Assembly (NCBI GenBank): GCA_021731385.1
Contig: JAKFXM010000207.1
Span: 1-19,270 of the forward strand
Length of the DNA: 19,270 nt
DNA from: Methanobacteriota archaeon
GTDB taxonomy: Archaea > Altiarchaeota > Altiarchaeia > IMC4 > QMZM01
Reading direction: 5' to 3'
Part shown: piece after piece, positions 2,797 to 17,598 of the stretch
How the letters are laid out: the number at the start of each line of letters is the position of its first letter
How positions within the stretch are numbered: position 1 is the stretch's first letter
Made by a program: the position numbers and the translations under genes
The notes under the pieces: model-generated
What the model saw: only the letters and a program-made list of their open reading frames with translations
Database searches by the model: none
What the model was told of the DNA's origin: nothing

Positions 2797-4080
2797 ATGA
2801 TGGAATTCAATATGCAATATGACCCATCTTTAGATGGGTCAGTAAGTGGTGATGATCAACCTCCCGAATCAGAGTCAATGGCTCTGATTGGGCCCAATGA
2901 GCCTAAAGGCTCATTAGGGTTCAGAAGGTTGATGTGGATCAGGAAATATAAGCCGGGGCACCTTGATGAGATTGCAGGCAATGCAAAATTGGTTGAGGAG
3001 TTAAGGAAATACAACTGGAAAAAACCATTGCTTGTCTATGGTCCTCCCGGTACTGGAAAGACCGTCATCGTTGAGGCGCTTGCTGTTGATTTGGGATTTG
3101 AATTAACCGAGATAAACGACAGGAATATTGAAAATGCAAAAACAATTATGCAGACTTCAAGTATCTTTGGAGACAGAAAATTAATTCTAATTGACAATGT
3201 TGATCAGATTGGTAATATTGCGTTATTAACGGATGCAATAAAAGAGACAAGAAACCCGACAATTCTGATAACCTCCGAATTTCAGTCCAAAAGATTGAAG
3301 ACAATAAAACTGCTTTGTGAGAAGATTCAGATGAGGAGGCTCCTTTCCACAACAATTGCAAACCTCCTTCAAAAAATATGCAAAAGTGAGGGGATCGAGG
3401 CTGATAAGAGCATACTTGCAAAAATTGCAGAAAATGCCAATGGTGATGCAAGGTCTGCAATAAATGACCTCGAGATGATTGGAAAGGGAAAGAAAAAACT
3501 AACTGCTGAAGATACTGAACTCCTTGGATCAAGGAACAGGTTAATTGATGTTTATAGTGCCCTTAGTTCGATATTGGCAAAAAGGGATTTTAAAGAGGCT
3601 TTAAATTCTACAATGAATCTTGACTTGGAGCCAAGGGATACCCTTTTGTGGATCGATGAGAATCTCCCAAGGGTTTTTAAGGGTAAAAAAGAAATAAGCA
3701 GCGGATATAACTATATCTCAAGGGCCGATATATTTATCGGCAGGATCCAAAGCAGGCAATACTGGGGCTTTTTAAGATATGCAGTTCCATTGATGACCGG
3801 CGGTGTTAATGTTTCAAAAGGTACGTCACCTGTTAATTACGCAAGATACCAGTTTCCAATGTATATTGCAAAATTGGGACAGACAAAAAAGGAAAGATCA
3901 CTTAAAAAATCAATATCCGGGAAATTATCTCCAAAACTTCATGTCTCCTCTAAAATTGTGGTGCGGGATTATATCCCATTATTCAGAATATTGCTTAAGA
4001 ATAAAAAGATAGCCGAGAGGGAACTTGCCGAAAGATTTAAATTTGAGGATGAGGAGTTGGAGTACATCAAGGGCGATTAG
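2797..4080 (+). CDS. rfcL: replication factor C large subunit (clamp loader, AAA+)
   Basis: 427 aa. WIRKYKP is followed by the Walker A motif LLVYGPPGTGKT, then DNVD (the Walker B-like box) and a sensor region, ending in a long C-terminal helical domain. ATG ATG at 2797-2802 sits directly after a hairpin. An alternative in-frame ATG at 2932 (MWIRKYKP) would give the canonical N-terminus. TAG at 4078-4080. Confidence 0.75.
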   Translation: MMEFNMQYDPSLDGSVSGDDQPPESESMALIGPNEPKGSLGFRRLMWIRKYKPGHLDEIAGNAKLVEELRKYNWKKPLLVYGPPGTGKTVIVEALAVDLGFELTEINDRNIENAKTIMQTSSIFGDRKLILIDNVDQIGNIALLTDAIKETRNPTILITSEFQSKRLKTIKLLCEKIQMRRLLSTTIANLLQKICKSEGIEADKSILAKIAENANGDARSAINDLEMIGKGKKKLTAEDTELLGSRNRLIDVYSALSSILAKRDFKEALNSTMNLDLEPRDTLLWIDENLPRVFKGKKEISSGYNYISRADIFIGRIQSRQYWGFLRYAVPLMTGGVNVSKGTSPVNYARYQFPMYIAKLGQTKKERSLKKSISGKLSPKLHVSSKIVVRDYIPLFRILLKNKKIAERELAERFKFEDEELEYIKGD

Positions 4081-5000
4081 CCGGAATTCCCGGCATTCTC
4101 CTCAAATTTTATCTCATTTCTCTCAAGTAATATCCTGAAATCTTCCATGCTGAGCCTTTTCTTGCTCTGCAATTTCTCCTTTGCCTCAATTACGCTTTCC
4201 TCCTTCTTCCTTTCTTCCCTATCAGATCTTATCTTTTCAAGTTCTGTTATAAACGGTGCAACCTTTTCCTGGATCTCCTTGATTTCCTTCTTAATTGAGG
4301 TTACATTGTCCCTGAGAGGATTCATATAATCATACTTTTCAAGAAGCCCCTTATGACATTCATCAGAATGCTTCCGCAATTCGTCAATCTCCTTATATCT
4401 CTTCATTGCATTCTCATGATTATTTTGCGATTCTTGCGCAAGATTCTGTATCTTGTCATGAATGTCATCAAGTTCTTTATTTACATCCTTTATCCCCCCA
4501 TAAGTCTCCGAAACATCTTTGTGCATCGTATTTGCCTTTTTGGCTGCAATGAATCTGTCCTTTATTTCAAATAAATTCTCAAAAATCCTGATTTCGTCCT
4601 GCAGGGGTATGTCTTTATTCAGCAGGGTATCCAGACCGTTTTCATAGGAAATCTGAAGCCTTTCGCTTGTACCCCCCGCGATTCTGTTTAATTCATCCCT
4701 TTGAACCTTTGTATCCCTCATATTGCTTCTGAGGCTCTTTATCTCGGTTAGAAGTATTGTGCGCCTTTTCTTAAATTCGGATATTTCGTTATTAACAGAA
4801 TCCCTTTTCTTTATAAACTCCTTTGCCTCTGTGTTAAGTTTCTTGATTTTGTCAGTTGATTCGTCCCTCTCTACTCTCAACCTGTCGGCTTCTGCCTTGT
4901 GAAAATTTATCTCCTTGTATAACCTCTTTATCTCCTTATCCTTTCTGTCTATCTCGTGCCTTAGGGCGTTTATTTTTTCCTTCAGTTCCTTTTCGTTCAT
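4077..5000 (-). CDS. coiled-coil protein of unknown function
   Basis: 307 aa, K/E/R-rich heptad-like sequence throughout. Strong SD AAGGAGGAAACCTG immediately precedes ATG at 4998-5000. The stop TAA (revcomp of 4077-4079) overlaps the rfcL TAG, so the two genes converge. Confidence 0.55.
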   Translation of the reverse strand: MNEKELKEKINALRHEIDRKDKEIKRLYKEINFHKAEADRLRVERDESTDKIKKLNTEAKEFIKKRDSVNNEISEFKKRRTILLTEIKSLRSNMRDTKVQRDELNRIAGGTSERLQISYENGLDTLLNKDIPLQDEIRIFENLFEIKDRFIAAKKANTMHKDVSETYGGIKDVNKELDDIHDKIQNLAQESQNNHENAMKRYKEIDELRKHSDECHKGLLEKYDYMNPLRDNVTSIKKEIKEIQEKVAPFITELEKIRSDREERKKEESVIEAKEKLQSKKRLSMEDFRILLERNEIKFEENAGNSG

Positions 5001-5391
5001 CAGGTTTCCTCCTTACTACTGAAAAATCCTTATATTTGTTGTTCCAATACTCTATTGCATCTTTGTGCATACTAATATGTTGTTCAAGCCAGGGTGATCT
5101 GCTATTCTTATTTACAATTCCGTCGGGCTGAAATTCCTTCAGTTCGTTCTTCAAATTTATTATCTCCGTATCCGTAATTTTCTTTTCATTCAGATATTTT
5201 TTATAATTCGGATTTTCTTCATCATTGCTGGCTGAATCCATCCAGTACTTCAACTGCTCCTGCTTTTCATTCAGTACATTAAGTTTACTAATTACATCAA
5301 ATTCCCTTTTATAACCCCCAAGAAATTTTCTGTGCTTTTCAATGAGGATGTTCGATAATTGCTTTGGGGTTACTTTTTCAGGCGGAGTCAT
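4936..5391 (-). CDS. hypothetical hydrophilic protein
   Basis: 151 aa. ATG at 5389-5391 lies 27 nt downstream of the CDP-alcohol phosphatidyltransferase stop. The 3' end overlaps the next gene by 65 nt in a different frame. No recognisable motif. Confidence 0.35.
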   Translation of the reverse strand: MTPPEKVTPKQLSNILIEKHRKFLGGYKREFDVISKLNVLNEKQEQLKYWMDSASNDEENPNYKKYLNEKKITDTEIINLKNELKEFQPDGIVNKNSRSPWLEQHISMHKDAIEYWNNKYKDFSVVRRKPDERKGTEGKNKRPKARDRQKG

Positions 5392-5418
5392 CTTTTTTAA
5401 GGAATTAAGGAATATACT

Positions 5419-6006
5419 TTATTTTTTATAATTAAAAACAAACCAGATCCTTTGTAATGCCGTTATATTTCCCAAAATTGCGGCAAGTTTGATTATATAT
5501 AAAAGCCATGAGAAATCAAAGTGTCCCAATAACATGCCGATGTAGATTAATGTCAAACGTTCACCCCTTTCTAAAATCCCACCCATTCTCCTATGATCTT
5601 CTGGTTCTGTTACAACCCCCCGATGGTCTGCATAAGCCCTGACAAATGAGGGCATAATAGCACCAAAGATCAAAAGAGAAATCCATAGTCCGGAAATCCC
5701 ATAGAAGAGAAGCCCCAAATATAACAAAATTTCAACATATCTGTCAACAATGCCATCAAGAAATGCACCAAAACTTGTTACACGCCCGGTAACCCTTGCA
5801 ACCGAACCATCGATTGCATCAATTATTCCTGAGATCAGGAAAAGGATGAGACCATAAATAAGGTGATGTGTGTACAATGCACCAAATCCTAAAACTGCAG
5901 GGATTATTGAGATAAGTGTCCATATATTCGGTGAAATTCCGAATCTTGAGAATATTATTCCAATCTTTATGGAAATTCCATCCGTATTGAATTTTGATTT
6001 GATCAT
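5419..6006 (-). CDS. CDP-alcohol phosphatidyltransferase family protein (archaeal polar-lipid head-group transferase)
   Basis: 195 aa. It carries the family signature D-x2-DG-x2-AR-x8-G-x3-G-x3-D-x3-D, seen here as DAIDGSVARVTGRVTSFGAFLDGIVD, within a multi-TM protein. SD GAGGG lies 7 nt before ATG at 6004-6006. The gene sits 9 bp downstream of the radical SAM gene. Confidence 0.7.
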   Translation of the reverse strand: MIKSKFNTDGISIKIGIIFSRFGISPNIWTLISIIPAVLGFGALYTHHLIYGLILFLISGIIDAIDGSVARVTGRVTSFGAFLDGIVDRYVEILLYLGLLFYGISGLWISLLIFGAIMPSFVRAYADHRGVVTEPEDHRRMGGILERGERLTLIYIGMLLGHFDFSWLLYIIKLAAILGNITALQRIWFVFNYKK

Positions 6007-6015
6007 TACTTTCCC

Positions 6016-7500
6016 TCATCGCTCCTTTTTACTGCCTCTTTCCACCCCTTCCCTGTGCAATGCATTGTAACTGCAGAACGGAATCAGCCTTCCATCAGGA
6101 GTTGAATAATGTATCGTACACCTCTCAACCCTCTGCGTGTCAAAATTCCAGGGATCCATAAAGTGCATGCAGCCAATCATAAGTGCATTTTCATGGAAAG
6201 ATGCGGTTGCATCATAAGTACCTGTTTTGAGAAGTTGCAGTATGGTATTTCTATACTTCGGGTTGTGAATGCTACCGATTGTCTCGCTGAGGAATTTTGC
6301 ATTAATTTTTAGTTTTCCGGCATTCAGTCTTTTTGAAATTGAATTTTCATTTCTTAGTTCTTCCGCACCCTCTTTTAATATCCTGAAGAATCTATCAACT
6401 TCAACAATTTCGTTTATTGGCGTGTATGTCTTATCATCGTTTATAATTATGTATGTTCCAACGCCGCAGCAGGGATGAACGCTCATCTTCACTGCAGGGA
6501 TTCCTGTATATGCCTCGACAAAATTCGAAAGGTGCATCATTGACGGTACAGGATAGAAGTATTTTGCCTTTATCATACTCCTTGTCTGATTTTCAACCAA
6601 ATTTATAAAGTCATATGTGGTTATCCTGTTCCCCTTAACCTCAATTTTTGATGCCTTCCCCGCAAACGAAAGCGGCTGGAAGTTAACGCATTTTATAATA
6701 TCGCTATTCTCTGCTGCGAACTTTATTATCCCCCCAACCTGATTGTCATTTATGCCTTTTACAAGTGTCACTACAAGAACAACATTCTTCAGCCCGATTC
6801 TCCTGCAGTTTTCAATTGCGGTGATTTTTTTGTCAAGCAGGTCAACACCCCTGAGTTTTCTGTAGATTCCATCATCAAGTCCATCAAATTGGAGATAGAA
6901 GGAATCCATGCCAGCATCTTTAAGTGCCTTAAGGTAATTTATATCATTTGCAATTCTAATTCCATTAGTATCGACCATTATATAGAGGAAACCTAATTTT
7001 CTGCCAATCCTTACCAATTCCGGGAGGTCATCCCTCATTGTAGGCTCCCCACCCGAGAACTGGAATGCATATGCAGGAACCGGCTTGTTATCCCTCAGAT
7101 TTTTGAGCATTTTTTCTATCTTCTCGGCAGATGGCTCGTATATCTCCTTACTAGAACCTGCATTTGCAAAGCATACCGGACAGCGAAGATTGCATCTGTT
7201 GGTAACATCAACTATACCAAGAACTGTATGGCTTTTATGCCCATTACATAGACCACAGTCATAAGGACATCCTTTATCCCTTTTTGTTCCGGGATTCTCT
7301 ATACCATTTCCATCATTTTGGAATCCCATAACCCATTTGTAGTGTTCAGCATTGCCCCAGTAGATATCCTCGAAATTCCCATGGTCATTGCAGGTTTTTT
7401 TTATCTTAATTTTACCATCCTCCTCAACAAGTTCTGCAGGAATTTTCTTTAAGCACCTTGGGCAAAGGCTTTCTGTAGTTCTGATAACCCTTGATTTCAT
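6016..7500 (-). CDS. radical SAM enzyme, Tes / GDGT-MAS (MJ0619-like) family candidate
   Basis: 494 aa. An N-terminal Cys-rich ribbon (CPRC...C.DHG) is followed by the radical SAM core CNLRCPVC (CX3CX2C), with SGGEPT and several additional conserved Cys towards the C-terminus. Length and architecture fit the archaeal tetraether-synthase / MJ0619 family as I recall it. Its position directly upstream of a lipid head-group transferase is contextual support. Confidence 0.5.
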   Translation of the reverse strand: MKSRVIRTTESLCPRCLKKIPAELVEEDGKIKIKKTCNDHGNFEDIYWGNAEHYKWVMGFQNDGNGIENPGTKRDKGCPYDCGLCNGHKSHTVLGIVDVTNRCNLRCPVCFANAGSSKEIYEPSAEKIEKMLKNLRDNKPVPAYAFQFSGGEPTMRDDLPELVRIGRKLGFLYIMVDTNGIRIANDINYLKALKDAGMDSFYLQFDGLDDGIYRKLRGVDLLDKKITAIENCRRIGLKNVVLVVTLVKGINDNQVGGIIKFAAENSDIIKCVNFQPLSFAGKASKIEVKGNRITTYDFINLVENQTRSMIKAKYFYPVPSMMHLSNFVEAYTGIPAVKMSVHPCCGVGTYIIINDDKTYTPINEIVEVDRFFRILKEGAEELRNENSISKRLNAGKLKINAKFLSETIGSIHNPKYRNTILQLLKTGTYDATASFHENALMIGCMHFMDPWNFDTQRVERCTIHYSTPDGRLIPFCSYNALHREGVERGSKKER

Positions 7501-7596
7501 TCTCTAAGAGGTGTAACTAAATATGAGTTCTTTACTAAATACTAAAAATTTTACTTCATGCAAATTTAATATGAAATTCTTTGAGAATTTTATATA

Positions 7597-8808
7597 TCAC
7601 TCATATCTCAATGCGTCAACCGGCTTAAGATTTGCAGCCTGCCTTGCCGGAAGAAAACCTGAAATACATCCGACAATGAAGGAAAACAATAAAGCGCCTA
7701 TGATGAGCTGTGGGGTGATTGCCGCCTGTACAATGGTCTGATCTAATTGCACCACTGCTATATATTCGACTATCTTGCCTAGCGTTGCTCCGATGAGGCA
7801 CCCTACAACTCCTCCGATCAGACCTATCAGGCCGGATTCCATCATGAACATGACGACTATGTTAGAGTTTTTTGCACCTATTGCTTTCATGACACCGATT
7901 TCTCTTGTCCTTTCAAGGACTGATGTATACATGGTATTCATTATCCCGACACCCCCGACGATCAGGGAGATACCTGCTATGCCCGCAACTATCGCCTGCA
8001 CTGCATCAAGTATTGTCCCAACAGACGACCTTACCTGTTCGAGTGTTATTACATTGAAGTCTTCTTCCCCTTTTTTAAGACCTCTATCCTGCCTCATTTT
8101 TTCTTTTATCTTATCTGCGACGACTTTTACATTATAGCCATCTTTGATTCGTATCATTATTTCTATGTAGTCATCTTTGACGCTGAATAGATTCTTTGCG
8201 TCTTCGGCAGTTATGTAGAGGTGGCTGTCATCGTCGGGGTTTCCTATCCTGCTTACAAATGCAGATACTGTGAATCTCCTATCATTGATGGTAATTTTGT
8301 CGCCTATCTTAAGCGGCTGATCAAATGCTTTTCCACCCCAGTATTCATACCCTACGGCTACCTTGTTAGTGTCCCCGGGCTTAAACCTCTGTTGCCCTTT
8401 TTCTATCTTGACCCCTGTGCCTTCCAGTAGAATGTCCTGCGTATCTCCACTGTCCACACCAACAACCATAGGATACACAATCTTATCCTGAAACTTTACC
8501 TTGGCTATCTTGCCGATAATACCCCCTGCGAGTTCAACGCCTTTAACGCCTTTTATAAGTCTTATGTCATGGTCTGTGAGTTTTGATGCTGCCCCTCCGG
8601 GGCCGAACAAACCCCCAGGCATGATGAATACGAGGTTTGGCCCAAGTATTGCGAACTGCTGGTTTATTGCATACTGCAAACCTTGGCCTAAGGAGATAAG
8701 AGATACTATGGCCGCTATCCCTATCACTATGCCTATGACCGTCAGCCAGCTTCTTATCCCCTTGTTCTTGATGCTTTTAAGCGATATATTCAGAAATTCA
8801 TCCAGCAT
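7597..8808 (-). CDS. ABC transporter permease, MacB/FtsX-type (large extracytoplasmic domain plus 4 TM)
   Basis: 403 aa. An N-terminal TM helix is followed by a domain of about 250 aa outside the membrane and a C-terminal FtsX-like 3-TM bundle ending KPVDALRYE. It is a paralogue of the upstream permease. Confidence 0.7.
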   Translation of the reverse strand: MLDEFLNISLKSIKNKGIRSWLTVIGIVIGIAAIVSLISLGQGLQYAINQQFAILGPNLVFIMPGGLFGPGGAASKLTDHDIRLIKGVKGVELAGGIIGKIAKVKFQDKIVYPMVVGVDSGDTQDILLEGTGVKIEKGQQRFKPGDTNKVAVGYEYWGGKAFDQPLKIGDKITINDRRFTVSAFVSRIGNPDDDSHLYITAEDAKNLFSVKDDYIEIMIRIKDGYNVKVVADKIKEKMRQDRGLKKGEEDFNVITLEQVRSSVGTILDAVQAIVAGIAGISLIVGGVGIMNTMYTSVLERTREIGVMKAIGAKNSNIVVMFMMESGLIGLIGGVVGCLIGATLGKIVEYIAVVQLDQTIVQAAITPQLIIGALLFSFIVGCISGFLPARQAANLKPVDALRYE

Positions 8809-8813
8809 TTTCG

Positions 8814-10037
8814 TTACCTGTATCTTAATGCATCGACTGGTTTCATATTAGCCGCTCTTATTGCAGGCATGTACCCTGAAATGCATCCTACGAGAAATGA
8901 AAACGCAAGTGCCCCTAATATTAAATCCGGTCCTGCATAGATGGCGAAATCCTTTATTCCATAGGACCTTACTACATTTTCAGCTATCAGGCTGGCGATG
9001 AGACCGAGTATTACCCCTATTATGCCCCCTACGAGACCAAGAAGTCCGGATTCCGCTATGAATATCAGGAGTATGTCGGAGTTTCTCGCACCGATTGATT
9101 TCATTATGCCTATCTGCCTTGTCCTTTCAATGACGGACGTGTACATGGTAGTCATTATGCCTATACCCCCAACAATCAGGGATATTGCGGCTATGCCGGA
9201 TAAAACGAGCGTGACTATGTTCAGTACGATCTTGAATGATGCAACGATATTTTCAGAAGTCTGAACAGAAAAGTCCTCCTCTTTTTCCTTAACGTGCCTG
9301 TGTTGTCGCAGGCGATCCTTAATCTTTTCTGCAACATCTGACGGTTCGGATCCCTTCTTTACCTTTACCGAGATCATTGAGTACTCGTCTGTTTTGTTAA
9401 AAAGATCCTTTGCAGTGTCAAGGGGTATTATTATCCTACTGGCTGTAAATGGGTCTCCGGTATCTTTATTTATGCCGACGACGTCGAATTCAACATCATT
9501 TATCTTAATCTTACTGCCTAATCTAATGTCTTTTTTAAACAGGCCTTCTCCAACATTAGGACCTATAATCGCCTTGTATCTATCGCTCTTCTTGAGATAA
9601 CCTCCCTTCTCAACCTTTGAGAAGTCCGAATCCCTAAGAAATGGCAGATACTCTGGGTCTGTTGATATCCCTACTACAGAACCAAACTTCTTTTTATTAT
9701 TGTATTCGATATCAGCTGTCACGAAGATTATACCAAGGGCCATGTCAACACCCCTCACCCTCTTGACGACGTCAACATCGCTTTCATGTAACTTGGCCGA
9801 AGTAAGCGTTCCGCCGGGAGGACCGCTCTGGAATCCCCCGCCTCCAGGGGTGACGATTATCCTATCACCACCTATAGCCTCAAACTGCCTATCTATGTAT
9901 TTCTGCAAACCCTGACCAAGGGAAATAAGGGTAACCACGGCAATTATGCCTATGAACACCCCTACCATTGTAAGCCAGCTCCTGACCTTCCTGTTGGCTA
10001 TGCCATCCAAGGCAAGCTTTAGATAATCGCTCCACAT
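8814..10037 (-). CDS. ABC transporter permease, MacB/FtsX-type (tandem paralogue)
   Basis: 407 aa with the same architecture and clear sequence similarity to the 7597-8808 product, for example the shared end ...MKPVDALRY. ATG at 10035-10037. Confidence 0.7.
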   Translation of the reverse strand: MWSDYLKLALDGIANRKVRSWLTMVGVFIGIIAVVTLISLGQGLQKYIDRQFEAIGGDRIIVTPGGGGFQSGPPGGTLTSAKLHESDVDVVKRVRGVDMALGIIFVTADIEYNNKKKFGSVVGISTDPEYLPFLRDSDFSKVEKGGYLKKSDRYKAIIGPNVGEGLFKKDIRLGSKIKINDVEFDVVGINKDTGDPFTASRIIIPLDTAKDLFNKTDEYSMISVKVKKGSEPSDVAEKIKDRLRQHRHVKEKEEDFSVQTSENIVASFKIVLNIVTLVLSGIAAISLIVGGIGIMTTMYTSVIERTRQIGIMKSIGARNSDILLIFIAESGLLGLVGGIIGVILGLIASLIAENVVRSYGIKDFAIYAGPDLILGALAFSFLVGCISGYMPAIRAANMKPVDALRYR

Positions 10038-10050
10038 GATTCATTAAAAA

Positions 10051-11688
10051 TCAAACCTTTCTCTTGAAGATTTTTCTGTCTATATAGCCTGTGAAAAGCA
10101 GGAGGAGTTTATAGACAAACCAAAGAACCAATCCAACAACGATTAAACCGACCAATAAACTCACTCCAGTGATTATAAGCGATACAGCGCTCCCTGTCGG
10201 CTGCTTACTTGCATACTCCTGTACTGAAAGGATGTTAAGGTCCAAATCCACCGTATCGATGTGGTCTATGTTACTGTTCTTTTCCTTGTAACTTACTTCA
10301 AGCTTCAGGGGTATTTTTCCCGCAGGGACGTTGTCTTTTATCTGTATCTCGAATTCCTGAGTGTCTGTTGCATCCGAGTCAAGGTTTCCTATATAGGCTT
10401 CAGTTGAGGAGAGCATATTGTAGTTTCCGGTAGGTAGGAGTTTAAGATTCAGGAATTTAACTTCAGCAAATCCTTTATTGACCACATTGATGGTTATCTT
10501 TCCCTTGCTTCCTGAAGTAAACAGGTCTGCTTTTTCAAGGATGAGTTTTATCTCGGGTTTACCGCTTACTTGTATGCCGATTGATTTCTTAACCGTATGC
10601 TTTAAGCCGGCTGAATCAAAGTAATCGATGCTTATAGGTACATCGTAGGCTTTTATGTCGGCTGTGGAGTCAATCATGGCTTGGAAATTTATTTTCTTTG
10701 TCTCATGGCCTTTGATTTTCCCGGCGTATCTATCAGATGACCCGACCGCGGTAAAGGGGCTTTCAAGGTCCAGTGTTACACTGACATCATCTGCAGGGGC
10801 GCTTCCTACATTGTTAATCTCTATGGAGATATTAGATACCGTTCCAGGATTTGTATTCTCATAAATTACGTTTGTTATCTTGAAGTCTACATCATATCTG
10901 TTAACATCTATTCCTACCAGCAGGGTCTCTGTTAAGGGATTGCCAGAAGCATCAGAATAATCGAGAATAAGGTTTAAAGAGCACACACCTACACTCACCG
11001 GTTGTATTAAATATTCCAGTTTAAAGTTTTCTCCTTTGCCTAAGTTCCCCATGTATGATTTCGAAGAACCAAGTATAGAAGCACATGATGATGAAAGCGT
11101 TGCAGAAATATCTCTTGCCCCGTCCTGCGTACTACCTATGATAACAAGTTTCTCGCTGATGTCTTCAAAAAAATCTGCTTTTTCTACATCAACCTTGAAA
11201 TTAGCCTTTCCATAAGTCCTCAACGGAAAATCCCAGAGGGAAAGCTGATTGTTTTTCCTGTTTCCTTTAGAGTCATAACCATCGTAGCTTATCCTTACCT
11301 GTAGAGTGTGAAGACCTATAGAAGCGTCTTTTGATATAGATACAGTCGTTGATACGGTTTTTGTACTTAACGGGTCTATTCTGCCTACATCCCATCTCCT
11401 GTCAACGTGTACATCGCTTGTCCCGGGTATGTAGACCTGTACATTTTCCGCAGACTGTAAGCCGACATTCTTTACCACAACCTGCAGAACACCTGAATCA
11501 CCCGGCTTAAGGTTGCTGTCTATGTGCGTCAGATCATAATCCAATACTACGTTTGTCGGTGTAAGAACTGTCTGCGTTGCAGTTGTAGTCATGCTTGCCG
11601 TTTCCTGAATTGTTGCATTGACTATTCCGATAATCACTGAAAATATAGCCAACAGAAGCATTCCCTTATAAATTCTTTTCATATTCAT
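10051..11688 (-). CDS. secreted or surface-anchored protein with repeated COG1361/DUF11-like (CARDB-type) beta domains
   Basis: 545 aa. The N-terminal signal peptide is MNMKRIYKGMLLLAIFSVIIGIVNA. Repeated segments of the form NVG....V.V.L follow (VKNVGLQSAENVQVYIP, IEINNVGSAPADDVSVTL, ITINVVNKGFAEVKFLNL). The C-terminus has a TM helix and a basic tail (LIVVGLVLWFVYKLL...RKIFKRKV). SD GGAGG lies 10 nt before ATG at 11686-11688. Confidence 0.6.
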   Translation of the reverse strand: MNMKRIYKGMLLLAIFSVIIGIVNATIQETASMTTTATQTVLTPTNVVLDYDLTHIDSNLKPGDSGVLQVVVKNVGLQSAENVQVYIPGTSDVHVDRRWDVGRIDPLSTKTVSTTVSISKDASIGLHTLQVRISYDGYDSKGNRKNNQLSLWDFPLRTYGKANFKVDVEKADFFEDISEKLVIIGSTQDGARDISATLSSSCASILGSSKSYMGNLGKGENFKLEYLIQPVSVGVCSLNLILDYSDASGNPLTETLLVGIDVNRYDVDFKITNVIYENTNPGTVSNISIEINNVGSAPADDVSVTLDLESPFTAVGSSDRYAGKIKGHETKKINFQAMIDSTADIKAYDVPISIDYFDSAGLKHTVKKSIGIQVSGKPEIKLILEKADLFTSGSKGKITINVVNKGFAEVKFLNLKLLPTGNYNMLSSTEAYIGNLDSDATDTQEFEIQIKDNVPAGKIPLKLEVSYKEKNSNIDHIDTVDLDLNILSVQEYASKQPTGSAVSLIITGVSLLVGLIVVGLVLWFVYKLLLLFTGYIDRKIFKRKV

Positions 11689-11753
11689 TTTTCGCTATCC
11701 TCCTTTATTTTTATTATAATAAATTTTATGTGTCCGCATGAATTTTATGGATT

Positions 11754-12443
11754 TTATTCTGCGGGAACAACCTTGCCGTCTTTTAGATTTACAGACCTTT
11801 TGGCATATTTAGCCACATTTGGATCGTGCGTTACCATTACGATGGTTTTGCCTTCTCTGGAGTGCAAATCCGAAAGCATCGTCATAACTTCTCTCCCGGT
11901 TTTTGTGTCAAGGTTTCCCGTAGGCTCGTCTGCCAGTATAACCTCCGGATTGTTTGCAAGCGATCTCGCTATAGCAACCCTCTGCTGCTGACCTCCCGAC
12001 AGTTCCATTGGTTTGTGATTTAGTCTGTCGCCTAAGCCCACTGATACCAGGAGTTCTTTTGCTCTTTTCTCTCTTTGGTCTCTTGGAACTCCTTGGAATG
12101 TCATTGGTAGCATTATATTTTCAAGCGCTGTGAGCCCCGGCATGAGATTGAATGTCTGGAATATGAATCCTATCTTTTTGCCTCTTATTTGCGCGAGGTC
12201 GCTTTCCGAGAGCTGGGATATGTCTTGGCCTGAAAGGAAGATTTTCCCTCTTGTAGGCACATCCAGACACCCCACCATGTTCATCGCAGTTGATTTTCCA
12301 CTTCCGCTTGGACCCATTATGGCTACAAACTCTCCATGAAAGACTTTAAGGCTAATTCCTCTAAGTGCGGGCACCTCTACATTGCCCATATTGTAGATTT
12401 TCCAGACATCCTGCAACTCTATTACTGGATTTTGATTTTCCAT
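11754..12443 (-). CDS. ABC transporter ATP-binding protein (MacB/LolD-like)
   Basis: 229 aa. It carries Walker A GPSGSGKST, the signature LSGGQQQRVAIAR, Walker B ILADEPTGNLD and an H-loop VTHD. ATG at 12441-12443. Confidence 0.85.
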   Translation of the reverse strand: MENQNPVIELQDVWKIYNMGNVEVPALRGISLKVFHGEFVAIMGPSGSGKSTAMNMVGCLDVPTRGKIFLSGQDISQLSESDLAQIRGKKIGFIFQTFNLMPGLTALENIMLPMTFQGVPRDQREKRAKELLVSVGLGDRLNHKPMELSGGQQQRVAIARSLANNPEVILADEPTGNLDTKTGREVMTMLSDLHSREGKTIVMVTHDPNVAKYAKRSVNLKDGKVVPAE

Positions 12444-13587: not shown

Positions 13588-16500
13588 ATGGCACAAAGCA
13601 AACCCCAAATTAGTTCTAAAGACAAGAAAAATTTTGCCAACCCGAAAAATTCCAAAGGAATTTTTGGGCCCATTGAGCCAGAGGCTCAATCGGGTGGCAA
13701 AATTTTTGTGCCCAATCAGAAACTTATAGTTTCTGATTCGGGCAAGAAGGAAAAATTTATTCTCTGGTTTGATGAAATCGGCATTGAGGATGTCCCTCTT
13801 GTAGGCGGAAAAAATGCATCCTTGGGGGAGATGATAAGAGAGTTAAGCAGCGAGGGGATAAATGTTCCAAACGGTTTTGCAATAACTGCCTATGCATATA
13901 ACTATCTGCTGAAAAATGCCAAGATTGAGGAGAAGATTAAATCCGCTCTCGCAGACCTTGACACACATAACATTAACAACTTAATGGAAAGGGGCAAAAA
14001 GGTCAGGGATATAATTCTCAAAGCTGAATTTCCGGAAGAACTAAAATCTGAAATAATAGATGCATATTCCCAGATGCACAAGAAATTTGGCTATGAAGGA
14101 AATCCGGATGTCGCTATTCGCTCAAGCGCAACTGCAGAGGATTTGCCAGATGCTTCTTTTGCAGGGCAGCAGGACACCTACCTCAACATCAGGGGTCCTG
14201 ATGCTGTGATTGATGCGTGTAAAAAATGTTTTGCAAGCCTCTTTACCGACCGGGCAATCTCGTACCGGACGGATAAGGGCTTCAACCATTTTGATGTCTA
14301 CCTTTCAATTGCCGTCCAAAAGATGGTCCGGAGCGATTCTGCGAGTTCCGGTGTCGTTTTCTCGATAGATACTGAGTCTGGTTTTAAGGATGTTGTTTTT
14401 ATAACGGGTTCTTACGGTCTTGGTGAAAACATTGTCAAGGGTGCAGTAAATCCAGATGAAATCTATGTATTCAAGCCAACACTGAAAAAGGGAAAGAAAC
14501 CAATTATTGGAAAGAAATTGGGGACAAAGAAGATAAAGATGGTTTATTCCGATACCGGAACTAAGAATATAGACACACCGGAAGAAGAGAGTAACAGATT
14601 CTGCATGACGGATGATGAGGCATTGAAATTGGCCGAGTGGACATGCATCATTGAGGATCACTACAGTAAAAAGGCAGGTTATTACAAGCCCATGGACATA
14701 GAATGGGCAAAGGATGGTGACGGAATAAAAATTGGATCTGGCAAATTATTCGTTGTCCAGGCAAGACCGGAAACAGTGCATTCTCAGAAAAATTCAAAGA
14801 TAATAAGGACATACATACTGAAGGAAACGGGCACGGTTCTTATTACGGGTCAGGCAGTAGGGGAACTTATTGGAAAGGGCGAAGCGAATAATATTGCAAG
14901 TTCTGAAGAGATAACGAAATTCAAAAAAGGTCAGGTTCTTGTAACAGACATGACTGATCCGGATTGGGAGCCGATAATGAAGATAGCATCTGCGATTGTT
15001 ACGAATAGGGGGGGCAGGACATGTTTCTCTGGAGATACTAAAATTTTAACTAACAATGGATTTATGACTATGAGTGAAATTTTTGAAAATCATGAAGGGC
15101 TGTTTGTTCCTTCTCTGAACAGAAATACCCTAAAAATAGAATGGAAGTCTATTCTAGCTGTAATGAAAAGACAAAGCGAGGTTATTGAAATTGAAACATC
15201 ATTAACAGGAAGGATGAAAGGCAACAGACTTAAACTTACACCAGACCATAAGATGCTCACATTTGAGAATAGGCAACTTGTTACAAAGGAAATAGATAAA
15301 ATCGTAGAAGAGAAAGAATACCTAACAATAATGGACGCCCTTCCAGCATTATCAAGCAGTTCTGAAAGAGAAAATGATCTTGCATATCTGCTGGGTGCAA
15401 TATCAACTGATGGCCATATATATCTAACAAAAACTCATGGAGAAGTTCAATTAATCCAAAAACCAACAAAGGAAAAAGAGGCTTTTATTAAAGAGGTTGA
15501 TGGTTGCTTAAACAAGGTTTACGGCAAAAGATTTAATCCGAAATTCAGAGAATTTCGGAGCTTCGATTTTCCTCTGGAAAATCGAATTAAGGTCAGCAAA
15601 AAGCAAGAGAGTGAAGGGAGTATTAGAGGAAAACCTTGTATAGGCTCTGCAAATGCTTACAGATGTTACGGTAAACAAATAGCTATAAGTTTATTAGAAG
15701 AACAACAAAATTTCATTCAGACACTCTTATATGCTGATGAGAGCCTAATTCTTAATTTCCTGGCAGGGGTTATTGATGGCGATGGTTCAATTAACGGGGA
15801 AGGAACAAGAATCAATATATATTGTTCAAAAGAAGGTCTTTTACAGCAAATAGTTGTTGGATGTCTTAGATTAGGCATACTCCTGCAGGTTACAAGAAAC
15901 AGGAATATTTACAATGTGCAAATCGTTGAGAAGTTAGATAGAATATTAGAATTTACGAAACGGGTTAAATGTCATAACAAGAAAAATTTCCTTTCAGGAA
16001 ATTTTTGTGTGGCTGAGCCCAAAGGGCTCAGACACGTGTCTGAGGCGAAGCCTCAGCCACATGCCCAATCAGCCTTAAAGGCTGATTCGGGTAAAAATGA
16101 TAGAAAGCGTATTGGGACAAGATTCTTTTCTGCAAGACAACTCCTTGATGATGTTAAACACAAGGTGAATTATAAGGGCAGAACTTTGCCGTGCATAGAC
16201 AAAAACCTGTTAATTGACTCTGAAAAAATTAAGAGGGATCTACTTGGATTGTGTCCTGAAAAAATTAAAAACGAAATTATGAAGATACTATCCTCAGATA
16301 CAAGAATGCAAAGAGTTAGGAAAACTGCCAATTTAGGGGTTCAGGATGTTTATAATATAACAATTGCAGATAATCACAATTATGTTGTTTTCACTGATAG
16401 ATACACACCAATAATTGTCAATAACTGTCACGCAGCAATAGTGTCAAGGGAACTCGGAATTCCATGCATTATCGGAACAGGTAATGGAACGGAAATTCTT

Positions 16501-17598
16501 AAATCCGGTAAAAAGGTTACAGTTTCCTGCGCAGAAGGCGAGATCGGGAGTGTCTATGACGGGCTTCTTGATTTTGAGATAAAGGAAATTGATCTTAAGG
16601 AATTGCCAAAGACAAAGACAAAGATAATGATGAATGTGGGGATGCCTGACAAGGCATTTGTCCAGGGTCAGATCCCATGTGATGGCGTCGGGCTTGCAAG
16701 GGAGGAATTCATAATAAATTCATACATAGGAATACATCCTCTTGCACTGCTAAATTATGACAAATTAAAGGAAACTGCAAGATCTGACAAAAGGATTGCC
16801 GATGTTATAAAAATTATAGACGAAAAAGCAAAGGGCTATGGGAACAAGGTTGAATTCTTTATTGACGAACTTGCAAGGGGAATTGCAAGGATTGCAGCAG
16901 GCTTTTACCCGAATGATGTAATTGTCAGATTCTCTGATTTCAAATCAAACGAGTATGCAAATCTTGTAGGCGGGTTCCTATATGAGCCGATGGAGCATAA
17001 TCCGATGATAGGATGGAGGGGTGCTTCAAGGTACTATGACAAGAATTTCAAGCCCGCATTTGGCCTGGAGTGCAAGGCAATCCTCAGGGTGAGAAATGAA
17101 TTTGGGCTTGAGAATGTAAAGGTAATGGTTCCATTCTGCAGGACTATTGATGAAGGTAAAAAGGTCATAGAAACAATGAGGGAATTTGGATTAAATCAAG
17201 GAGAGAATAATCTGCAGGTATATGTGATGTGCGAAATTCCAAGTAATGTTATACTTGCAGACAAATTTTCTGAAATATTTGATGGATTCAGCATTGGTTC
17301 AAATGACCTGACGCAACTTACCTTAGGACTTGACAGGGATTCATCTCTTGTTGCTCCCATATATGACGAGAGAAATGAGGCTGTGAAGAGGCTGGTGAAG
17401 CATGTCATAGAGGTTGTGCATAAACATAAGCCAAGAAGAAAGATAGGAATCTGCGGGCAAGCCCCTAGTGATCATGAAGATTTCGCCGCATTTTTGGTTG
17501 AGTGCGGGATTGATTCAATTTCCTTGAATCCTGATACAGTAATAAAGACAAGATTAAAGATCGCGGAAAAGGAGAGAGAGATTGGAATTTCTGCGTGA
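13588..17598 (+). CDS. ppsA: phosphoenolpyruvate synthase (pyruvate, water dikinase), intein-containing precursor
   Basis: 1336-aa ORF. The N-terminus ILWFDEIGIEDVPLVGGKNASLGEM matches the PpsA start. The phosphohistidine motif TNRGGRT/CHAAIVSRELGIPC is split by a 468-aa insertion, and the C-terminal PEP-utilising domain is present (NDLTQLTLGLDRDS). Extein length is about 868 aa, including a Lys-rich N-terminal extension of about 50 aa. An alternative GTG start exists at 13708. Confidence 0.85.
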   Translation: MAQSKPQISSKDKKNFANPKNSKGIFGPIEPEAQSGGKIFVPNQKLIVSDSGKKEKFILWFDEIGIEDVPLVGGKNASLGEMIRELSSEGINVPNGFAITAYAYNYLLKNAKIEEKIKSALADLDTHNINNLMERGKKVRDIILKAEFPEELKSEIIDAYSQMHKKFGYEGNPDVAIRSSATAEDLPDASFAGQQDTYLNIRGPDAVIDACKKCFASLFTDRAISYRTDKGFNHFDVYLSIAVQKMVRSDSASSGVVFSIDTESGFKDVVFITGSYGLGENIVKGAVNPDEIYVFKPTLKKGKKPIIGKKLGTKKIKMVYSDTGTKNIDTPEEESNRFCMTDDEALKLAEWTCIIEDHYSKKAGYYKPMDIEWAKDGDGIKIGSGKLFVVQARPETVHSQKNSKIIRTYILKETGTVLITGQAVGELIGKGEANNIASSEEITKFKKGQVLVTDMTDPDWEPIMKIASAIVTNRGGRTCFSGDTKILTNNGFMTMSEIFENHEGLFVPSLNRNTLKIEWKSILAVMKRQSEVIEIETSLTGRMKGNRLKLTPDHKMLTFENRQLVTKEIDKIVEEKEYLTIMDALPALSSSSERENDLAYLLGAISTDGHIYLTKTHGEVQLIQKPTKEKEAFIKEVDGCLNKVYGKRFNPKFREFRSFDFPLENRIKVSKKQESEGSIRGKPCIGSANAYRCYGKQIAISLLEEQQNFIQTLLYADESLILNFLAGVIDGDGSINGEGTRINIYCSKEGLLQQIVVGCLRLGILLQVTRNRNIYNVQIVEKLDRILEFTKRVKCHNKKNFLSGNFCVAEPKGLRHVSEAKPQPHAQSALKADSGKNDRKRIGTRFFSARQLLDDVKHKVNYKGRTLPCIDKNLLIDSEKIKRDLLGLCPEKIKNEIMKILSSDTRMQRVRKTANLGVQDVYNITIADNHNYVVFTDRYTPIIVNNCHAAIVSRELGIPCIIGTGNGTEILKSGKKVTVSCAEGEIGSVYDGLLDFEIKEIDLKELPKTKTKIMMNVGMPDKAFVQGQIPCDGVGLAREEFIINSYIGIHPLALLNYDKLKETARSDKRIADVIKIIDEKAKGYGNKVEFFIDELARGIARIAAGFYPNDVIVRFSDFKSNEYANLVGGFLYEPMEHNPMIGWRGASRYYDKNFKPAFGLECKAILRVRNEFGLENVKVMVPFCRTIDEGKKVIETMREFGLNQGENNLQVYVMCEIPSNVILADKFSEIFDGFSIGSNDLTQLTLGLDRDSSLVAPIYDERNEAVKRLVKHVIEVVHKHKPRRKIGICGQAPSDHEDFAAFLVECGIDSISLNPDTVIKTRLKIAEKEREIGISA
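15022..16425 (+). mobile_element. intein with LAGLIDADG homing-endonuclease domain inside ppsA
   Basis: The intein starts CFSGDTKILT (block A) directly after GGRT. Block B is LKLTPDH. The two LAGLIDADG motifs are LAYLLGAISTDGHIY and LNFLAGVIDGDGSI. Block F/G is VYNITIADNHNYVVF...IIVNN, followed by the extein CHAAIV. The insertion is 1404 nt (468 aa) and in frame. The penultimate residue is Asn rather than the usual His. Confidence 0.85.
15984..16087. repeat. hairpin-chain repeat element (copy A of conserved core) embedded in frame in the intein
   Basis: Hairpins are aaatttcc-tttca-ggaaattt (15984-16004), ctgagccc-aaa-gggctcag (16013-16031) and ctgaggc-gaa-gcctcag (16040-16056). The palindrome gacacgtgtc sits at 16031-16040, followed by ccacatg and then aatcagcc-ttaaa-ggctgatt (16067-16087). 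The segment is GC-rich relative to its flanks and encodes VAEPKGLRHVSEAKPQPHAQSALKADSG. Confidence 0.6.

Follow-up and report, generated by a model that had tools for sequence, protein, structure and literature searches.

A tetraether lipid synthase gene next to a conserved, probably inositol-phospholipid-related gene module in an Altiarchaeota contig

We analysed a 19,270-nucleotide (nt) stretch of an archaeal contig (JAKFXM010000207.1, assembly GCA_021731385.1, lineage Altiarchaeota; hereafter the window), in which a radical S-adenosylmethionine (SAM) gene lies immediately ahead of a CDP-alcohol phosphatidyltransferase gene. Four co-oriented open reading frames (ORFs) of 494, 195, 151 and 307 amino acids (aa) occupy positions 4077-7500 on the minus strand. 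In the order of transcription they encode an orthologue of tetraether lipid synthase (Tes, or GDGT-MAS; 6016..7500), a membrane-bound CDP-alcohol phosphatidyltransferase that is probably an archaetidylinositol-phosphate synthase (AIPS; 5419..6006), a small conserved helical protein (4936..5391) and a coiled-coil protein of the DUF7121/COG1340 type (4077..5000). None of the four is a chance ORF, since all have strong homologues elsewhere. We consider it likely that the locus is an ordinary Tes gene joined by rearrangement to a conserved inositol-phospholipid module, making it a lineage-specific juxtaposition and not a dedicated operon.

Domain analysis of the 494-aa protein returned the Pfam families Radical_SAM (97 bits) and Zn_ribbon_HMPTM (72 bits), and the protein passed the NCBIfam equivalog model for Tes (NF045702) with 637.9 bits against a cutoff of 450. 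It has a 51% identity over 484 aa (525.7 bits) to the GDGT-MAS of M. jannaschii, MJ0619 (PDB 7TOL). A first-pass annotation had described an N-terminal cysteine ribbon, a CX3CX2C core and extra C-terminal cysteines and had proposed membership of the Tes/GDGT-MAS family; each of these features was read in the sequence between 6016 and 7500 (C13x2C16x20C37x2H40, C78x3C82x2C85 and C103x3C107x2C110, followed by C344/345, C444, C461 and C476 in the C-terminal part), and the profile search bore out the family membership. The metal sites published for GDGT-MAS are a CX2CX20CX2H rubredoxin site, a Cys3-His N-terminal cluster, the radical SAM cluster and a C-terminal cluster with a labile methionine (PMC9433317). 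The rubredoxin-type motif was present with exact spacing, C37 and H40 being invariant among 22 homologues and C13 and C16 conserved in at least 90% of them. In the same alignment C78, C82, C85 and H88 of the N-terminal auxiliary [4Fe-4S] site were invariant, the cysteines aligning to C73, C77 and C80 of MJ0619, and the radical SAM core was formed by C103, C107 and C110. The C-terminal [4Fe-4S] ligands C345, C461, C476 and M445 were likewise invariant; M445 aligns to the MHFMD motif that holds Met439 in MJ0619, individual ligands being assigned by alignment only. Judged by its sequence, the protein is a Tes/GDGT-MAS orthologue in which all four metal sites are predicted to be kept. It shares full-length homology, the four-domain layout and the metal ligands with MJ0619 (PDB 7TOL/7TOM), MA_1486 and the Tes of S. 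acidocaldarius, and differs in a C-terminal tail slightly shorter than the family consensus and in its setting, with a MacB-type ABC operon upstream and the AIPS-like module downstream. By homology, the enzyme would link two saturated phytanyl chains in archaeal glycerolipids through their methyl ends to form glycerol dibiphytanyl glycerol tetraether (GDGT), macrocyclic archaeol or both.

That the radical SAM protein is instead a non-lipid enzyme, either the pterin methylase of the old MJ0619 annotation or a paralogue resembling TrsS, is extremely improbable. The Pfam N-terminal domain still carries the HMPTM name, and the model for TrsS, the nearest paralogue, does match at 407 bits, but this value is below its own cutoff of 490 and far under the 638 bits obtained for Tes, and the 51% identity to MJ0619 extends across the full length with every ligand kept. 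The pterin methylase role of MJ0619 is itself uncorroborated: it was not reproduced, and the crystallographers judged it incorrect from a structure in which a hydrophobic lipid tunnel was seen (PMC9433317). The methanopterin annotation, earlier given as a reason for doubt about specificity, is therefore outdated and adds little uncertainty.

The neighbour starting 9 bp downstream of the Tes gene had been called a CDP-alcohol phosphatidyltransferase, and this identification held, as did the spacing. The 195-aa protein matched the Pfam family CDP-OH_P_transf (PF01066) with 64 bits and contains the full signature D63xxD66G67xxA70R71x8G80xxxD84xxxD88, in which D63, D66, G67, A70, G80, D84 and D88 were invariant across 24 transferase homologues and R71 was conserved in at least 90%. 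Its best NCBIfam match was AIPS (NF040950; 132.9 bits, full length), followed by bacterial phosphatidylinositol-phosphate (PIP) synthases and DIPP synthases, while the pgsA/pssA models scored just 25-32 bits. All of its relatives of solved structure (PDB) were inositol-phosphate transferases. In MtPIPS, R155 and R195 bind the phosphate of inositol phosphate, as shown by mutagenesis (PMC4634129); R150 (within R147-G-E-R150) and R186 of the window protein align to these two residues and were invariant in the 24 clade members. The protein shares with AIPS (NF040950), RsPIPS (5D91) and MtPgsA1 (6H53) the CDP-alcohol signature, a similar size (~195-210 aa) and a multi-pass membrane topology, and with AIPS and the PIP synthases the RxxR and C-terminal arginines for the phosphate of inositol phosphate, its orthologues being in addition linked to myo-inositol-1-phosphate synthase (MIPS).

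This link emerged when the genes upstream of the transferase orthologues were clustered over 80 metagenomic loci. A co-oriented MIPS gene was the commonest upstream neighbour (~30 of the 80 loci). Of the 54 loci that offered 1.2 kb or more of upstream flank, 18 had a MIPS gene whose end came within 600 bp of the transferase on the upstream side. The identity of the neighbour was established by PF01658 (125 bits) and TIGR03450 (507 bits). The same arrangement recurred at loci reached independently through the coiled-coil protein, including L173, and at a JGI locus. Genomic context is the strongest evidence for the AIPS assignment, and the transferase is most likely an AIPS that would form archaetidylinositol phosphate from CDP-archaeol and myo-inositol-1-phosphate. 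Horizontal acquisition of the gene was also considered and was rejected, its closest homologues all being of the Altiarchaeota type.

Several points weigh against the inositol-phosphate part of our interpretation. The AIPS match is under the equivalog cutoff of 180 bits, and so is the whole Altiarchaeota-type clade (116-141 bits), of which 22 of 24 scanned members match the model with E <= 1e-30 (best E = 2.4e-41). The window holds no MIPS gene, the MIPS position being occupied by Tes. Published lipidomes of Altiarchaeum describe glycosidic intact lipids and report no inositol-phosphate lipids. With every scanned member below the cutoff and no inositol lipids in those lipidomes, the clade might represent a new specificity within the family, its head group being, for instance, serine, a novel alcohol or glycerol phosphate in place of inositol phosphate. 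The low scores of the pgsA/pssA models, the presence of both phosphate-binding arginines of PIP synthases and the standing of MIPS as the commonest upstream neighbour of the orthologues make this distinctly unlikely.

The two genes behind the transferase proved to be its regular companions. The 151-aa protein consists of a ~110-aa core and a basic tail and matched no Pfam family. As one gene caller had skipped it, we considered whether the ORF was spurious, and rejected this because the protein is 23-64% identical across loci whose DNA has diverged. Homologues were found at 38 loci, and in an alignment of 13 copies, K19, H20, Y27, E42, Q46, W50 and W116 were invariant, a clear mark of purifying selection. 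The AlphaFold model made from the single sequence (pLDDT 63) contained three helices and, being of low confidence, was used for helix content only. The model of the 307-aa protein was of higher confidence (pLDDT 89) and comprised a long antiparallel helical hairpin (helices 3-108 and 133-278) with 44% charged residues. PF23435 (DUF7121) was detected in all 29 database homologues of this protein; the window copy scored 20.4 bits against a gathering cutoff of 29, and the orthologue at locus L089 scored 30.8. Length (~300 aa) and hairpin are those of DUF7121 (PF23435) and of COG1340, the 'uncharacterized archaeal coiled-coil protein'. A Foldseek search of the model against the PDB returned only generic helical hairpins of SMC, Rad50 and chemoreceptors (E >= 1e-3), with no functional lead. 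Hydrophobic segments were absent from both helical proteins. The first-pass annotation had presented both downstream genes as coding for coiled-coil proteins: this is firm for the 307-aa product, whereas for the 151-aa protein only helicity, in a low-confidence model, could be retained.

A homologue of the small protein was located directly downstream of the transferase at 29 of the 69 metagenome loci with room for it, and a homologue of the 307-aa protein came next at 21 of the 57 loci with room. The loci concerned were those of the closer relatives, above ~52% identity. The triad was found at L089 8001-9924, L173 2924-5903, L174 3787-5945 and ~30 further loci, and was kept together while both flanks varied, with MIPS, DnaJ, GcvH, an NAD-binding protein or Tes upstream and the large subunit of RFC, Kdp or ornithine carbamoyltransferase downstream. 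A three-gene module of AIPS-like transferase, ~110-aa helical protein and DUF7121 protein is thus conserved in Altiarchaeota-like archaea, and both helical proteins are partners of the transferase and not of Tes, contrary to the earlier suggestion that they belong to a Tes operon. In many loci the stop codon of the small gene overlaps the start of the coiled-coil gene, which suggests translational coupling, and the two proteins are probably coupled in this way. The distant DUF7121 member at L176 has unrelated neighbours, so the link between DUF7121 and a phospholipid synthase is clade-specific. A convergent RFC large-subunit gene followed the coiled-coil gene at L089-L091, L093, L094, L098, L114, L122, L130, L132, L135 and L173; this gene often accompanies the triad in synteny and is not thought to be a functional part of it.

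Altiarchaeota have two membranes. One may ask whether the transferase, the small protein and the DUF7121 protein form an obligate three-protein machine for the synthesis or placement of inositol phospholipids in these archaea, with placement behind Tes being adaptive and coupling head-group supply to tetraether formation. The helical pair could then scaffold the synthase or replace a still-unknown step after the synthesis of archaetidylinositol phosphate. We regard this as a tentative and rather doubtful extension of the data. We know of no description of two soluble helical proteins encoded behind known AIPS genes, and the triad was not met in the literature consulted, no literature search having been aimed at it.

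The junctions between the genes were inspected by eye. Exactly 9 nt (GGGAAAGTA; 6007..6015, minus strand) separate the Tes stop codon from the transferase ATG, and a GAGG ribosome-binding motif stands just 5' of the ATG, overlapping the Tes stop. No TATA-like box was seen in the last ~100 nt of Tes. Upstream of Tes, the AT-rich spacer of 96 nt between Tes and a MacB-type permease gene (7501..7596, minus strand) contains the TATA-like stretches TATATAAAA and AAATTTTTAGTATTTAG and may hold an archaeal promoter belonging to Tes itself. A scan for sigma-70 promoters and intrinsic terminators, models not applicable to archaea, returned sites no more frequent than in shuffled sequence. Further downstream the 151-aa and 307-aa ORFs overlap by 65 nt, with an AGGAGG Shine-Dalgarno motif preceding the ATG at 5000, and the end of the coiled-coil gene reaches 4 nt into the RFC large-subunit gene, which is convergent to it (2797..4080, plus strand; NCBIfam NF003229, 290 bits against a cutoff of 280). 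Given the 9-nt spacing and the ribosome-binding site, co-transcription of Tes and the transferase is likely, and Tes and the three-gene module are probably transcribed together in the source organism. The operon proposed in the first-pass annotation is thereby upheld for this locus, where the tight junction is real; elsewhere the pairing was not conserved.

Conservation of the Tes-transferase pairing had been set beforehand as the test on which the operon proposal could fail, and it was not found. We surveyed 80 Tes loci (±6 kb) from species-representative genomes, the two nearest named Altiarchaeota included, for a neighbouring CDP-alcohol transferase by a strict signature regular expression, BLASTP and an iterated hidden Markov model, and found none (0/80). 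In the reverse direction, no Tes was found near the transferase at any of 80 metagenomic AIPS-like loci, 50 of them with at least 1.6 kb of upstream sequence (0/80). The closest relatives of the two genes agreed with this. The closest Tes relative on a long contig (L082, 85% Tes identity) is syntenic with the window over NurA, the ABC/MacB operon and Tes, up to a point ~25 nt before the Tes stop codon. In L088 (87% Tes identity) MgtE genes and not the transferase follow Tes, and the Tes relatives at 70% and 68% identity are also without the pairing.

The closest transferase relative (L087, 85%) carries a frame-broken remnant of Tes directly upstream of the transferase (L087 1381-1620). The remnant consists of the first 117 nt of Tes (39 codons, 85% identical to the window) fused to the last ~100 nt (about 40 codons) in another frame, ~1.2 kb having been deleted. 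This indicates that the adjacency existed in the common ancestor of the window and L087 lineages, which are ~80% identical. The adjacency is therefore confined to a narrow group comprising the window and L087, one branch of which let the Tes copy at the site decay. From the remnant to the transferase there are 107 nt in L087 compared to 9 nt in the window, a difference suggesting that the region once upstream of the module may have been lost in the window, leaving the module to rely on transcription from Tes. Upstream of the remnant L087 encodes a 352-aa NAD-binding protein, at the place where the window has the MacB permease.

Our interpretation accordingly distinguishes two units, of which the first is Tes and the second is the membrane transferase together with the ~110-aa helical protein and the DUF7121 hairpin coiled coil, both soluble. 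A rearrangement in the window lineage would have set the second unit directly behind Tes, the spacer would have shrunk to 9 nt, and the module would consequently be transcribed with Tes. The juxtaposition would be recent and weakly selected. Besides the points already raised about the head group, three further ones count against this picture. The adjacency is older than the split between the window and L087 and so persisted for some time; L087 and L088 are both short contigs from single-sample assemblies and may not share one genome; and the adjacency of Tes and MIPS in two other phyla, described below, is a hint that linkage of Tes to inositol-lipid genes can be favoured.

At 85 loci the genes flanking Tes, the nearest three per side, were clustered; the pattern was seen post hoc and the lineages were not phylogenetically corrected. 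CDP-archaeol synthase (CarS; NF003114, >210 bits against a cutoff of 148) was the immediate divergent neighbour of Tes at 18-20 loci of Methanobacteriaceae, Methanolliviera and Methanohalarchaeum, with gaps of 24 to 772 bp (including L008, L010, L017, L032, L034-L036, L059, L060, L070, L073, L075 and L076). MIPS was located immediately beside Tes, co-oriented, in Thorarchaeota (L037 4509-7485; L081 4493-7485) and, divergent, in a metagenome-assembled genome (MAG) of Bathyarchaeia (L018 3126-5941). With the present case included, five or six separate lineages have Tes adjoining a gene from the CDP-archaeol or head-group pathway. The window thus resembles the CarS-Tes pairs of Methanobacteriaceae and the GGR genes ma1484-1485 beside Tes MA_1486 in placing Tes next to an archaeal membrane-lipid gene, and differs from them in its partner, a head-group transferase in place of CarS, GGR or MIPS, and in a tandem, tight arrangement as opposed to a divergent one. 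GDGT-MAS acts on saturated lipids that carry head groups, and the recurrence of head-group genes beside Tes fits an action on head-group-bearing diethers.

These neighbourhoods bear on a rival proposal, that of a dedicated operon of Tes and transferase maintained by selection. The transferase would supply archaetidylinositol(-phosphate) for preferential coupling by Tes to inositol-phospho-GDGTs, and the helical proteins would organise the complex at the membrane. Such an operon would agree with the 9-nt spacing, the ribosome-binding site and the shared strand, with an adjacency that predates the split of the window and L087, and with MIPS beside Tes in Thorarchaeota and Bathyarchaeia and CarS beside Tes in the 18-20 methanogen loci. 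The pairing is, however, absent from the 160 surveyed loci and from the closest relatives, the Tes copy at the site decayed in the sister lineage, the triad occurs without Tes everywhere else, and the head-group binding of GDGT-MAS is non-specific (PMC9433317). We therefore consider a dedicated operon unlikely and retain the juxtaposition of two independent units as the probable explanation. Because of this non-specific binding, the substrate of Tes cannot be named from adjacency, which weakens the earlier suggestion that the neighbouring transferase points to the polar lipid used. The adjacency in the window is unusable as evidence for Tes function or for a preferred polar-lipid substrate.

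The best named relatives of the window genes were all from MAGs of Candidatus Altiarchaeota/Altiarchaeales (Tes 66% and 61%; transferase 55-65%; coiled-coil protein 43-51% identity), and a sibling assembly (GCA_017973895.1) was 99.7% identical over 12.4 kb. Tes homologues in Altiarchaeota had already been noted by Zeng et al., and a 2026 study attributed GDGT-0 and extended tetraethers to Ca. Altiarchaeum (PMC13003381), so that both the prediction of Tes in the phylum and tetraethers for one of its clades were known. What is added here is a likely AIPS function for an Altiarchaeota-specific transferase clade that automatic annotation has left generic, a first view of the genomic surroundings of DUF7121 and the unnamed small protein, and a pattern, seen in several phyla, of genes from head-group pathways (CarS, MIPS, AIPS) lying beside Tes, which agrees with tetraether formation on saturated, head-group-bearing lipids. 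Tes is of low novelty here and the triad of moderate novelty; the triad offers a modest new lead within a finding that is ordinary overall.

Other features of the window were noted in passing. An ABC ATPase, a surface protein with a CARDB domain and two permeases of the MacB/FtsX type form an operon beside Tes (7597-12443). This ABC/MacB operon was also present beside Tes in the 85-87% relatives (L082 3526-7961; L088 2-376), on the other side of Tes in the 61% Altiarchaeota relative (L003 8060-12872) and beside Tes in an Aenigmatarchaeota MAG (L031 2918-4880), and in Altiarchaeota the linkage of Tes to ABC/MacB is more conserved than that to AIPS. The spacer between a mechanosensitive-channel-like gene and the RFC large-subunit gene (2482-2796) contains a string of short perfect hairpins, and tRNA and Rfam searches of it returned nothing above threshold. 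Its core of ~100 nt (2532-2633) has an intergenic counterpart in L082 (853-952) with 89% identity, and so exceeds the neighbouring genes in conservation. Finally, the PEP synthase gene (13588-17598) contains an intein of 467 codons (about 15025-16425) in which Pfam detects a LAGLIDADG domain. In the sibling L001, 99.7% identical, exactly this intein is missing, and identity drops to 97.8% just past the insertion site; the case is a presence/absence polymorphism between near-identical strains.

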